DNA of 64,000 bases from a virus. The stretch lies in the IMG/VR virus record IMGVR_UViG_3300027852_000002, positions 1 to 64,000 of that record. One strand, given 5' to 3'. The notes under the pieces are model-generated. The model did not search any database. It saw only the letters and a program-made list of their open reading frames with translations, and was not told the DNA's origin. Positions 10,284 through 49,796 of the stretch are shown here, piece by piece. The translations under genes and the position numbers were made by a program. Position 1 is the stretch's first letter, and the number at the start of each line of letters is the position of its first letter.

Positions 10284-10601
10284 ATGGATCGTTACATAGT
10301 CAGCAATACACAACCTGATTTAGTTATTGCTCAAATTGATGGTGATAATAAATTAATATTCTCTCCTATTATTGCTTGGGCTATATCTTTCGGAGAAAGG
10401 AATATACAAGGAGAAAGTCCTAATTCACCATGGCCTGTTACTCCTGCTTGCACTATAAGTGAGTACGAAATATTCGCTATCTATAATCTATGTACATCAG
10501 AATGGTGGCAAACAGAATTAGCATCAGGTAGGGGTTCTGAGGAACTTACTAAATTTTTACTACAAGCAGAACAACAAAAACGAGGAAAAGATAATGGCTG
10601 A
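10284..10601 (+). CDS. hypothetical protein
   Basis: 105-aa ORF in operon orientation. Confidence 0.6.
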   Translation: MDRYIVSNTQPDLVIAQIDGDNKLIFSPIIAWAISFGERNIQGESPNSPWPVTPACTISEYEIFAIYNLCTSEWWQTELASGRGSEELTKFLLQAEQQKRGKDNG

Positions 10602-10911
10602 AGTAAGACACCTACTACATCAAGTAGCTGTAGAATATGTTTGTGATGCCTGTGGTGAAGGAACCATGGTAGCTCAAGAAGACCAGATTATCGCTCCTTC
10701 TCGAAGCCCAGGCCACCTCCATAAATGTACAAACTGTGGCGAACAGCAAACCTTCACTGATGTACGTTATCCAGGTCAGTACTTTGTAAAAGGTCAAGCT
10801 CTGACGCCACCGGGTAAACAAGCTTCAACTGGACAAGCTGCAAATGATGTTATTGAAACGCCAACATCTATTAACCAAAAACCGAAACGGCGTCGTAAGA
10901 GACGGAAATAA
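10594..10911 (+). CDS. hypothetical zinc-ribbon protein with basic tail
   Basis: CDACGEG...CTNCGEQ; C-terminal KPKRRRKRRK; SD GAGGAA upstream. Confidence 0.6.
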   Translation: MAEVRHLLHQVAVEYVCDACGEGTMVAQEDQIIAPSRSPGHLHKCTNCGEQQTFTDVRYPGQYFVKGQALTPPGKQASTGQAANDVIETPTSINQKPKRRRKRRK

Positions 10912-11028
10912 ATACCTGTCCCTTGGTCTAAAGCTTCCTGGTTGTCCTAGACCAAGCAAATCTAAAAGAGAGAACCAGGACTGGATTAATTAAATTGTAT
11001 TATGAAAGTTAAGAGTGTATACACTCTT

Positions 11029-11929
11029 CCTTCCGGTGGTGGAAATTTACCTTTATAGGGAAAAACCGGAACTTTCACCACTCAATTGAACAAGAAGGCA
11101 GGGCCTACTTTCTTTAGAAGGTAGGGATTTAAGGCACCTAGCCCAGTGGGTGTTTGCCGGATAAACTGGGCGCTAATTTCCCCGCTTGAGGGCGATAATA
11201 CAGGGTAACCTGTAAAAAGGAGTGAAGCCTACGCAACTCCGCCCGTAAGGGTCATTTCAAGCAAGCCGAGTCGGAGGGGCATGCCCCTCGCTTCAGTTCC
11301 TGACTGGAGCTAGATTGTGAGCGATTAAGGCACTGTCGGGCGTAATAACCAAAAGCCTGATGCCGTGAGGTATCTGTGCAAGAAAGTAAACCTTTGACGA
11401 TTAAGGGTAGGATTCCTAAGTTCGAGTCGATAGGCGAGAGCATGGTTCCAGTATGACGCGGAGGGGCTGAAAAGTCTATTCCCGTGGAATATCGTTGAGT
11501 AGCCGATAGGTTAAAGACATTCGGTGTGTGGCATTTTCTGACCGCAAGGCTAGAAAACCACCAGAAGGCGCACATCGTGGTAGGTTTACGTTTAGCTCAG
11601 TTGGTAGAGCTTCGGCATATGGAGCCGACTGTCGCAAGTTCAATTCTTGCAACGTCTTGAAAAATGCAAAGACGCCTTCTGGTACTAGGTAAAAACAGCT
11701 TAATTCTAAACGTCCCACGGGATGAATTTAGATGACTCAATGTCGCAAGCGGAGAGTCATTAATATAGAGCCGCACTATCGCTGTTAGCTGCAGAGGTGG
11801 GTAGGCAAAGTATTGAGTAGCCTAGTAGTACGTATGAACCGCCACATACTCAAAAAGGCAGTTGTGTTGTTGTACTGGAGCGAGTTTCCAGTGGATAAGT
11901 TGGCAACTGAGCGGGTAGCACCGTGAAGG
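11029..11929 (+). ncRNA. candidate large structured RNA (GOLLD/ROOL-like or novel); boundaries provisional
   Basis: No same-strand ORF across 1.1 kb. Many hairpins including GNRA loops. Nested complementary pairs at 11029-11038/11919-11929, 11480-11487/11715-11722 and 11560-11570/11673-11683. Contains a tRNA-like module. Confidence 0.45.
11586..11658 (+). tRNA. tRNA-like gene; the hand fold gives anticodon AUG, so isotype and functionality are uncertain
   Basis: 73-nt cloverleaf. D arm is GCTC-AGTTGGTA-GAGC. Anticodon stem is TCGGC/GCCGA with loop ATATGGA. Variable loop is 5 nt. T arm is GCAAG-TTCAATT-CTTGC. The acceptor stem has only 5 bp, with 1:72 and 2:71 mismatched. Confidence 0.6.
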
Positions 11930-12011
11930 TAATCTGACAAAAGCAGCAGCGTTGTGAGTGTAGTCTCAACTCACTGAATTTAGCACTCTAATAACTAATA
12001 CGGAGAACTCT

Positions 12012-46888: not shown

Positions 46889-48129
46889 TGCGGCGTCAAC
46901 TCAGACATATCAGCGTTAGTATCAAATACATGCAACGGAGTAACATTATCAGTGTCATAAATAGTTACAGTATTTGCACCCTTATCCCACTTACGCCGGT
47001 TGTAAGCTGCATCGAATAGAGCCTGCACCTGAGTAGGAATAATAGCAGCATTGGTATGGATAGTAGTACCACTAGTTGTGCCTATGATCTCACAGATACC
47101 TCGAACATAAATATCACCGGCAGTCAAGTTATCACCCAACACCAAAGTAGATCCTGACACCACATCCAGGCAAACAGTATTAGCACCAGTCAGATTTTCC
47201 AGCTTCACCGGGCCTGACCAGTTACGAAACGCTAGATTACGACCGCTGCCGCCTAGATTGACCACCGGCAAATCCGCAGCACCCTGACCGACGCAACCAG
47301 ACTTACAATCGATGATAAACGAATCATCGGAACCGTCAATACTGATGTTACCACTTAACTTACACTCTTCGATCTGCCCCTCAATGTACTGCAAATTATG
47401 AATATTACAACCATTAATCCAACTATTACCATCCAGCACCGAGTCGGTAATCGTAGCATTCAGGATCTGGCAATCTAATACATCAGCTCCTGACTGAATC
47501 GTCAAAGTAGTTAGAATTGGATTCTGCCCTTTGATAGAAAACCCCGCCAAAATATCGCCTGATACAAAAGCAAAATTGCCTATCACTCCGATGGCATCAA
47601 GACCTACGTTACTAGCTATCGACACCGCATTATTCACATGGTAAAGAGGATATTTACGATTACCCACCCCTGAGATATCCTCAGTACCGTCCAAAGTGCT
47701 GTCGCTCTTAAGCCATACTGCATTTTGATAAGAAGCAAATTCCAGCTGCTCAGCCATAACCGAGGTCACTCCCTGAGTGATAGGTTGCAGGCCCAGAATA
47801 GCCGCTGTATACGCTCCATCAGTGGGAACGAACGCTGGCAAAGAGGTGCTATCCACAGCGAGGTTGCCAGTTAAGTAAATAGTGATGTCTTCCTCGGGTG
47901 GCTTTAAGCGCCAGCCATCAGTATTGTTCAGAAAAATGTAGCCACCCTGGTTGATGATCGAAGACAAGGGCGCTCCACCGTCTGAACGGAACAGAGCTGG
48001 GTAATGCCTATTATCAGGGTGCCCCAGCATCCAGTCCTTCCACGGTTCATACAGATCATCGAACACATCGACTTCAGATTGACCTGAATCGAGTGTTACG
48101 ATTAAATTGTCTCCATCGAATGTTGGCAT
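46885..48129 (-). CDS. tail fibre/tailspike-like protein (beta-helix-like repeats)
   Basis: 414 aa with short periodic N/G/I/D-rich strands (e.g. DCQILNATITDSVLDGNSWINGCNIHNLQYIEGQIEECKLSGNISIDG). TGATG junction. Confidence 0.6.
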   Translation of the reverse strand: MPTFDGDNLIVTLDSGQSEVDVFDDLYEPWKDWMLGHPDNRHYPALFRSDGGAPLSSIINQGGYIFLNNTDGWRLKPPEEDITIYLTGNLAVDSTSLPAFVPTDGAYTAAILGLQPITQGVTSVMAEQLEFASYQNAVWLKSDSTLDGTEDISGVGNRKYPLYHVNNAVSIASNVGLDAIGVIGNFAFVSGDILAGFSIKGQNPILTTLTIQSGADVLDCQILNATITDSVLDGNSWINGCNIHNLQYIEGQIEECKLSGNISIDGSDDSFIIDCKSGCVGQGAADLPVVNLGGSGRNLAFRNWSGPVKLENLTGANTVCLDVVSGSTLVLGDNLTAGDIYVRGICEIIGTTSGTTIHTNAAIIPTQVQALFDAAYNRRKWDKGANTVTIYDTDNVTPLHVFDTNADMSELTPQ

Positions 48130-49796
48130 CAGTCCACCGGATCGTAGTTGCGATCAGTCTGCTGGTTCACGTCTATGTTTTGAGATACTGAGAACGTCTT
48201 ATTTATAACGAATATCTCAAGCTTACCAGGATAGATGATCTTATAATCAATTGCAGCCCCTGCTGATACAGAAGCTACATAACTGGTTCCGCTGCTATCA
48301 GTACCAGCATCTGCATAATCACTGGTTCCTGTGTCGAATACCCGCACCTCAGATCCCGCTACCAGAGGTGTAAAAGTTAAATTGATTGTGGCGACGTCAT
48401 CAGACGTAGCACTAGTTCCGTTCCTAAACGACGGTTGGGTACCCCCGCCGGAGCGGTTGAATGTCCTGGCCGCTGCAGCGTTGTTGTAAATCATCGCGTC
48501 ATTGGAGCCAGACGCCGGGGTATTGTTATCGCCAGGTGTGCCGCCGTAGGAACCAGTGAAGAGATTACCCACGTTATTCTGGGAGGAAGGCCCTCCAGTT
48601 AAGATCTCGATACCATGTCCGTCAGTAAACTCAAAGTTGCTATATGCAATATCCCCGAGGTCATCCGTGTCCATATAGGCTACACCGTCAGCAGTGTTAG
48701 GAGCAATCACAGAAGCACGGACAACACTGGCATTCGATACGTGGGCCTTATTACCATCAATCAGCAAAACGGACGCCAAGTCATTCGCTGCATCATCCAG
48801 ATCCAGAGTGGCACTATGGATGAGAGAACAACCATAGATACCAATACTATCAATGTTGGCATCATCAAAGTCCAGTGACCATCTGGCACCACCGGACGCA
48901 GCGGTAACTACCCAACCCTGAGCACCAGTAGCGTCGTTGCCTGTCCCGGCCTTCACACCTGCCGTGATGTTGGTAGTACCGCCCGAGTTACCCAGAGCAG
49001 ACAGTGCGTAGAAATCATCGGGCAAGAACTCCTGATCATCCCAGAGAAGCACTTGGTTGGTGTCAGTAAACTCATGGGTAGAGGTGTCATTGATGCCAAA
49101 CTGCACCGGGGCGTTTAATACAACAGAGCCACCAGGGCCGCGTCTGCAAGTACCCCATTTACCTGTGTCAGCGGCAGACACAACATCGTCCCACTTCCAG
49201 TCGGTTGTTCCTCCATTCTTACCTTCAATCTTGATGCCTGCAGTACCATCTGGTAGACGAGTGATCTGATCAAGCCAAGTATTATCCACCATTCGAGGCA
49301 TGATAGTGGCCGTCTGGGACGAAATCCCAACATAGCGTATAGCCGATGTTGCAGGGGTAGTTCCGTTCGTCCAGCCAGCAGTAACTGCCTCAGACCGAGC
49401 GGTTTCGATATCTACCACGAACTGTACCCAGCCGCCCTCAAAAGCGGTAGGCCATGCATCAGATCCAGCGACGTACACCTCGAACCAATCAGTTACGGTA
49501 GCACCACAAAAGCGAACAGTCAGTCCTCCGTTGGATTTGGTCTTGAGGAACGCCACAATCGCACAGTTAACTAGCAGATGGAACGTGTTACTCGACCAAT
49601 CCTGAGCAGACCCAGCATCATGTAGTAGACCATCACGGGTCGTGCCGCCGTAGTACCCCCAGGAAGAGGATCCCTGGTAGTAAACCTCGGTATCGTTAGT
49701 GCCGCTTGCGCCACCAGTCAGATCGTCAGGAGCAGACGTGCTCTCCATCGTATCGACATTAGTGCGACCATCAGTGATCTGGTTAGCCACGGACAC
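48129..49796 (-). CDS. tail fibre-like protein
   Basis: 555 aa, rich in G, T, S, D and N; adjacent to the other fibre genes. Confidence 0.6.
   Translation of the reverse strand: MSVANQITDGRTNVDTMESTSAPDDLTGGASGTNDTEVYYQGSSSWGYYGGTTRDGLLHDAGSAQDWSSNTFHLLVNCAIVAFLKTKSNGGLTVRFCGATVTDWFEVYVAGSDAWPTAFEGGWVQFVVDIETARSEAVTAGWTNGTTPATSAIRYVGISSQTATIMPRMVDNTWLDQITRLPDGTAGIKIEGKNGGTTDWKWDDVVSAADTGKWGTCRRGPGGSVVLNAPVQFGINDTSTHEFTDTNQVLLWDDQEFLPDDFYALSALGNSGGTTNITAGVKAGTGNDATGAQGWVVTAASGGARWSLDFDDANIDSIGIYGCSLIHSATLDLDDAANDLASVLLIDGNKAHVSNASVVRASVIAPNTADGVAYMDTDDLGDIAYSNFEFTDGHGIEILTGGPSSQNNVGNLFTGSYGGTPGDNNTPASGSNDAMIYNNAAAARTFNRSGGGTQPSFRNGTSATSDDVATINLTFTPLVAGSEVRVFDTGTSDYADAGTDSSGTSYVASVSAGAAIDYKIIYPGKLEIFVINKTFSVSQNIDVNQQTDRNYDPVD

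Follow-up and report, generated by a model that had tools for sequence, protein, structure and literature searches.

What is a tRNA-shaped sequence doing in a 1.1-kb gap without plus-strand genes (10912-12011) in a phage genome, and does it decode or is it part of something larger? The window analysed here, 64,000 nucleotides of a virus genome, contains at 11586-11658 a 73-nt cloverleaf flanked by two perfectly complementary 11-nt arms, which the initial annotation interpreted as a tRNA-shaped domain within a larger RNA rather than a stand-alone decoding tRNA. Both halves of that interpretation stand, and the larger RNA can be assigned to a known family, GOLLD: with a probability of about 80%, the locus encodes a divergent phage GOLLD RNA of ~795 nt whose variable linker holds a tRNA that was captured and has since degenerated.

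The phage and its GOLLD RNA

The virus genome is complete (70,109 bp, with terminal repeats). Among its products are head and portal proteins and a family A polymerase, all with PHROG matches, as well as an SNF2 helicase and rIIA; the major head protein best matches those of the Pseudomonas phages KPP25 and phiR18 (58%), and the phage is podovirus-like. A search for close relatives found none: the only other contig, L291, has 7.8 kb identical to the window and may come from the same sample, so that a within-species comparison of the anticodon is impossible. The relatives recognizable at the protein level (55-63% identical) have, at the syntenic site, neither the 1.1-kb gap nor a GOLLD match, which implies that the cassette is accessory. 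The plus strand showed no sigma70 promoter, and no terminator scored above chance.

In E-value mode, the Rfam GOLLD model (RF02032) aligns in full (model positions 1-416) with 11521-11972 (E 5.5e-34, 124.2 bits). Two points speak against the assignment, the low identity of the nearest GOLLD core (57%) and this score, which lies under the Rfam gathering threshold of 150, a curation cut-off at which the GOLLD of the window is missed and which 16 of the 19 comparator loci used pass; other clear members of the family that bear an insert fall below it as well (L203, 143 bits; L289, 102 bits). Fourteen control genomes searched with RF02032 gave no match, and of the 20 loci scanned after retrieval with a first DNA pattern, none had an RNA-family match that reached the gathering threshold. 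The 340 nt upstream of the Rfam match are homologous to the 5' domains of other GOLLDs (E 1.4e-16 to L170), and alignment with L112 and L066 places the 5' end at ~11179; in L112, a sigma70-like promoter lies directly 5' of the equivalent first hairpin. Two antisense ORFs, 11252-11575 and 11476-11718, were rejected as genes because both overlap covarying RNA. The features of the locus, with tentative helix numbers derived from the linker name J13/15 and the published covariation table, are as follows.

11179..11975, plus strand: GOLLD RNA, ~795 nt (Rfam match and homology of the 5' domain; both ends approximate)
11179..11520, plus strand: GOLLD 5' domain, outside the Rfam model, homologous to other GOLLD 5' domains
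11522-11528/11571-11577, plus strand: P13, 7 bp, enclosing the P14 hairpin and a bulge that is the 5' strand of P15
11529-11560, plus strand: P14 hairpin, inside P13 (covariance-model alignment)
11560..11570, plus strand: 5' arm of the helix; the P15 5' strand is 11561-11570, and A11560 is shared with P14
11586..11658, plus strand: pseudo-tRNA insert in linker J13/15, with intact D, T and anticodon stems, a 5-bp acceptor and no CCA
11617..11623, plus strand: anticodon loop AUAUGGA, with A32, U33 and anticodon AUG at 11619-11621
11660..11671, plus strand: conserved A-rich linker motif with invariant columns
11673..11683, plus strand: 3' arm of the helix; the P15 3' strand is 11673-11682, and U11683 starts P16
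11683..11972, plus strand: remainder of the GOLLD 3' domain, which is conserved, including the invariant GUGGAUAA and the terminal hairpin
11683-11689/11821-11827, plus strand: P16 (complementarity in the window)
11696-11700/11860-11864, plus strand: pseudoknot of the conserved 3' domain

Among known GOLLD RNAs, env-38 has been visualized by cryo-EM as a 14-mer (bioRxiv 10.1101/2024.12.08.627333), and that of S. agalactiae is a 12-mer (reviewed in PMC12990946). Like RF02032 members such as env-38, the RNA of the window is phage-encoded and ~800 nt long, and has a full 3' domain (P13/P14, a bulge-to-core pseudoknot, P16, the invariant motifs and the terminal hairpin), a homologous 5' domain, and a variable linker in the same place; the complementarity of P16 and P17 is present. 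Unlike the known members, it has a GCAA loop on P14 instead of an A-run and a shortened P21 region, it is not part of a tRNA array, and its nearest GOLLD core is only 57% identical. The GC of the linker motif (11666-11667) is complementary to the GC of the loop at 11745-11746, and L133 shows a compensatory GG/CC swap at these positions. This pairing probably corresponds to bridge B7, the intermolecular L20-J13/15 kissing interaction described in the cryo-EM cage (Kretsch et al., bioRxiv 10.1101/2024.12.08.627333).

The flanking helix

The arms at 11560-11570 and 11673-11683 form a perfect 11-bp inverted repeat; a repeat of this kind arose in 1 of 1000 mononucleotide shuffles of a 164-nt stretch, as opposed to 108 of 1000 for the 1.1-kb gap. 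The repeat is thus rare locally, yet not within 1.1 kb, and its reality rests on covariation more than on rarity. In a 57-sequence alignment, P15 shows two-sided changes at all 10 pairs, with 90% of cells paired; the corresponding shuffle test is inflated by related sequences, and slid controls drop to 38-50%. An anchored search recovered P15 of at least 6 bp in all 70 homologues (on average, 9.2 bp vs 6.0 for mismatched partners), always between the segment that follows the invariant AAAG and the bulge that immediately precedes the 3' strand of P13, and the 5' arm of the window itself forms at most 6 bp with the 3' arm of any other sequence. The published covariation table for GOLLD lists a pairing in the same place, between P14 and the 3' strand of P13 (env-38 467-471/555-559, E <= 2.6e-6). 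The neighboring P13 is paired in 96% of cells, with two-sided changes at 6 of 7 pairs; the P14 stem is misregistered in alignment A2 (42% paired) and was excluded as evidence.

On this covariation, the helix is a core GOLLD pseudoknot that crosses P13, and the eleventh pair is a slip at the junction. The initial annotation had the module bracketed and enclosed by the 11-bp helix, in the manner of a stem that hosts the tRNA. The perfect repeat is indeed there, but only 10 bp of it make up the family helix, and a pseudoknot crossing P13 does not enclose the module: P13, P14 (which ends at 11560) and P15 (11561-11570/11673-11682) abut without gaps, U11683 opens P16, and in the GOLLD model P14 and P16 compete for the outermost nucleotides, A11560 and U11683, respectively. 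Nor is P15 purpose-built for the insert, given that it also forms in the insert-free GOLLDs L042 and L086.

The tRNA-shaped insert and its counterparts

The insert falls within the unstructured linker of the GOLLD model. ARAGORN, which the initial annotation had proposed to run, calls tRNA-His(atg) at 11586-11658, with the anticodon, which begins at position 34, at 11619-11621, and the Rfam tRNA model gives 48.9 bits, aligning over model positions 3-68 only and leaving out the outer two acceptor pairs. The insert folds into a cloverleaf, as originally described; its D stem has 4 bp, the anticodon, T and acceptor stems have 5 bp each, and U1.U72 and U2.C71 are unpaired. The elbow residues are kept (U8, A14, G18G19, U54-U55-C56, A58); A32 and U26 are atypical; and the ends show U-1 (11585) and U73 (11658), the tail reading UGAA, with no CCA. 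The placement of AUG at 34-36 is upheld, too: a misfolded Met anticodon, CAU, was rejected since, with a stem of 5 bp, the loop is held at 7 nt and has AUG at 34-36. BLASTN against annotated phages matched the tRNA body alone, mostly to tRNA-Met, and was uninformative.

The identity of bacterial tRNA-His is set by G-1/C73. With bacterial tRNA-His (GUG), the insert shares the cloverleaf, U35-G36 and G37, but differs from it in having A34 in place of G/Q34, U73 in place of C73, A32, and a 5-bp acceptor, and in lacking both G-1 and CCA. In the entire 70-kb genome, the sole match to the Rfam tRNA model is the insert itself. Relaxed ARAGORN settings add a tRNA-Ile at 48794-48888 on the minus strand, within the ORF 48129-49796, which Rfam does not support and which is probably spurious.

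When viral and metagenome contigs were scanned with patterns, ~80 distinct GOLLDs proved to carry a tRNA-shaped insert, and the embedded elements were parsed without using the acceptor stem. Because this set was gathered by a T-loop/linker pattern and a single clade accounts for 47 of the 80 rows, the percentages that follow are not independent counts, and the conservation of the T loop is in part imposed by the search. Among 64 embedded elements, acceptor positions 1-3 are paired in 41, 44 and 45%, and positions 4-7 in 89-100%, whereas the acceptor pairs of 403 free tRNAs from the same loci are 93-99% paired. CCA is present in 1 of the 64 vs 391 of the 403, A32 in 13 of 58 vs 7 of 403, and loops that are not 7 nt long occur in 6 embedded elements and in none of the free tRNAs. 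The D, anticodon and T stems of the embedded elements are 96-100% paired, with many two-sided (compensatory) changes, and near-identical GOLLD cores bear different anticodon loops (for example, L224 and L222). By this comparison of sequences, the oddities of the window are the norm for GOLLD-embedded elements, and its insert belongs with the degenerate ones. Since it is the acceptor end that deteriorates among family members, the suggested role of the domain as a handle for RNase P or CCA addition is disfavored.

Across the embedded loops (L264, L233, L247, L248 and other loci), Lys/Asn-like UUU, CUU and GUU account for 37 of 58, and UUA occurs in two; the AUAUGGA loop of the window, which resembles a His-AUG loop, is thus unlike the commoner ones. 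The anticodon-loop comparison proposed in the initial annotation shows that AUG-type loops recur: on a GOLLD-core tree built without the inserts, AUG loops require 7 changes, at least four of which are forced by well-supported branches, and L284 carries the identical loop AUAUGGA. With matched patterns, the viral collection contains 4 GOLLDs with AUG vs 2 with GUG, CUG and UUG combined, and the genome collection contains none with an AUG loop; among the 403 free tRNAs of the same phages, the AUG anticodon does not occur. The recurrence is a weak hint, not proof, of selection, and several of the AUG-type inserts have intact acceptors.

What the insert might be for

That the RNA matches GOLLD along the full Rfam model and the 5' domain, that its helix is the covarying family pseudoknot, linking the P13/P14 bulge with the beginning of the 3' core so that the insert loops out between P13 and P15, and that inserts of the family preserve the D, T and anticodon stems but drift in the loop, in CCA and in the outer acceptor pairs, we consider close to certain. 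What the RNA does can be projected from the solved members of the family. It is likely that GOLLD is transcribed on the plus strand together with the upstream plus-strand genes, and the RNA would assemble into an RNA-only cage of 12-14 subunits with the linker and the insert facing the interior. The insert would then stay tethered, being neither matured nor charged, and would not decode His. According to Kretsch et al. (bioRxiv 10.1101/2024.12.08.627333), the GOLLD linker is located in the cage interior and sometimes contains a tRNA.

The elbow and the anticodon stem are retained whereas the acceptor end is lost, which suggests that the insert is kept for its shape. We tentatively favor, at somewhat less than even odds, the view that this shape offers host factors that bind tRNA a surface on which to dock, or a decoy. 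Nearly as likely, although still doubtful, is that the insert is a functionless, decaying relic of a tRNA captured out of an array in a phage and tolerated in a disordered linker, with stems that persist only since a compact fold spares the folding of GOLLD. The absence of the insert from many GOLLDs, the drift of the acceptor end and the loop, the absence of GOLLD from the syntenic site of the protein-level relatives, and the disorder of the env-38 linker in cryo-EM (Kretsch et al., bioRxiv 10.1101/2024.12.08.627333) are all consistent with a relic. It fits less well with the covariation of the arms over cores that are only ~57-62% identical, and with the preservation of the D-loop GG and the elbow residues, which exceeds the needs of any compact hairpin, even if the conservation of the T loop is partly imposed by the search.

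Retention for shape contrasts with the possibility, improbable for this copy, that the insert is a tRNA precursor kept in storage, which RNase P and RNase Z would excise and which, after CCA addition, would work as a tRNA, be it His(AUG) or another, or else that the cut would leave two GOLLD halves held together by P15. The ARAGORN call is compatible with a precursor, A34 alone would not disable the tRNA, given that tRNAs with ANN anticodons can be functional in E. coli (bioRxiv 10.64898/2026.05.15.725136), and 'inhibited storage' has been proposed already (PMC12990946). However, pairs 1-72 and 2-71 are broken in the window, CCA is missing, U-1 and U73 stand where G-1 and C73 would be expected, A32 and U26 are atypical, and AUG is not used by the free tRNAs. 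The closest published parallels are the tRNA-Phe (PMC12990946) and the pseudo-tRNA (PMC6582537) in J13/15 of mycobacterial GOLLDs, which occupy the same position and likewise show no CCA and a frayed acceptor end; for the pseudo-tRNA, no separate RNA was detected by northern blot (PMC6582537). The precursor idea fares better elsewhere in the family. In a diverse clade, 4 of 33 elements have a full acceptor stem and CCA: L268 (1053-1112), L290 (3712-3770), L163 (12393-12449) and L133, each with a 7-bp acceptor, of which L163, L268 and L290 have the AUG loop and L268 and L290 also C73. These four are better candidates for a releasable tRNA than the window, and some lineages may release a real tRNA from GOLLD.

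A conformational switch, in which the 3' acceptor strand would toggle between the acceptor stem and the 6-bp pairing of CGTCTT (11653-11658) with AAGACG (11669-11674) noted in the initial annotation, is highly improbable and was rejected, because that pairing, which does exist, appears in the MFE fold and is favored locally (-23.8 vs -19.8 kcal/mol), is found in 1 of 71 sequences, the window only, being missing from all 70 homologues (typically 2-3 bp), and would occlude the invariant AAAG and two pairs of P15.

Retention for shape can be extended to a more speculative, and on balance unlikely, scheme in which GOLLD-embedded tRNA shapes make up a display module that is exchangeable and under selection. 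A single cage would present 12-14 mimics, with the elbow and anticodon stem fixed and the loop diversifying. These would be multivalent decoys against the anticodon nucleases of the host or other defense factors that bind tRNA, and the recurrent N-U-A-U-G-R-A loop would be one selected specificity. Lys tRNAs are known targets of anticodon nucleases, which, together with the Lys/Asn-like loops, motivates a test of the decoy idea.

The presence of tRNAs and pseudo-tRNAs in the GOLLD linker has already been published, and what is new here is a divergent member of the family from a small (70-kb) podovirus-like phage without a tRNA array. Comparison across the family quantifies what had been remarked before, namely, that the elbow and anticodon stem are kept whereas the acceptor end and CCA are lost. 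This pattern speaks for a shape module that stays tethered rather than for a stored tRNA, and points experimenters to the parts to mutate.

Several other apparently structured elements lie upstream of GOLLD on the plus strand. Two hairpins (11104-11125 and ~11134-11157) lie within 11104-11178, just before GOLLD, and a pattern of crossing inverted repeats at 10922-10980 (10922-10930/10948-10956, 9 bp; 10936-10946/10970-10980, 10 of 11 bp), resembling an H-type pseudoknot, starts 10 nt past the stop codon of the ORF 10594-10911; no homologue of either was found among the fetched loci. Between these two, 5' of GOLLD, the segment 11011-11066 consists of a variable hairpin followed by a nearly invariant block of ~42 nt that starts with CCUUCCGGUGGUGGAAAUUUACC and ends with GGGAAAAACCGG. 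This motif has no Rfam match, and its three sequences are too few for covariation; it recurs in two other phage contigs, at L264 (2956-3013) and, on the minus strand, at L292 (3660-3715), among repeated closed RNA modules near tRNAs.
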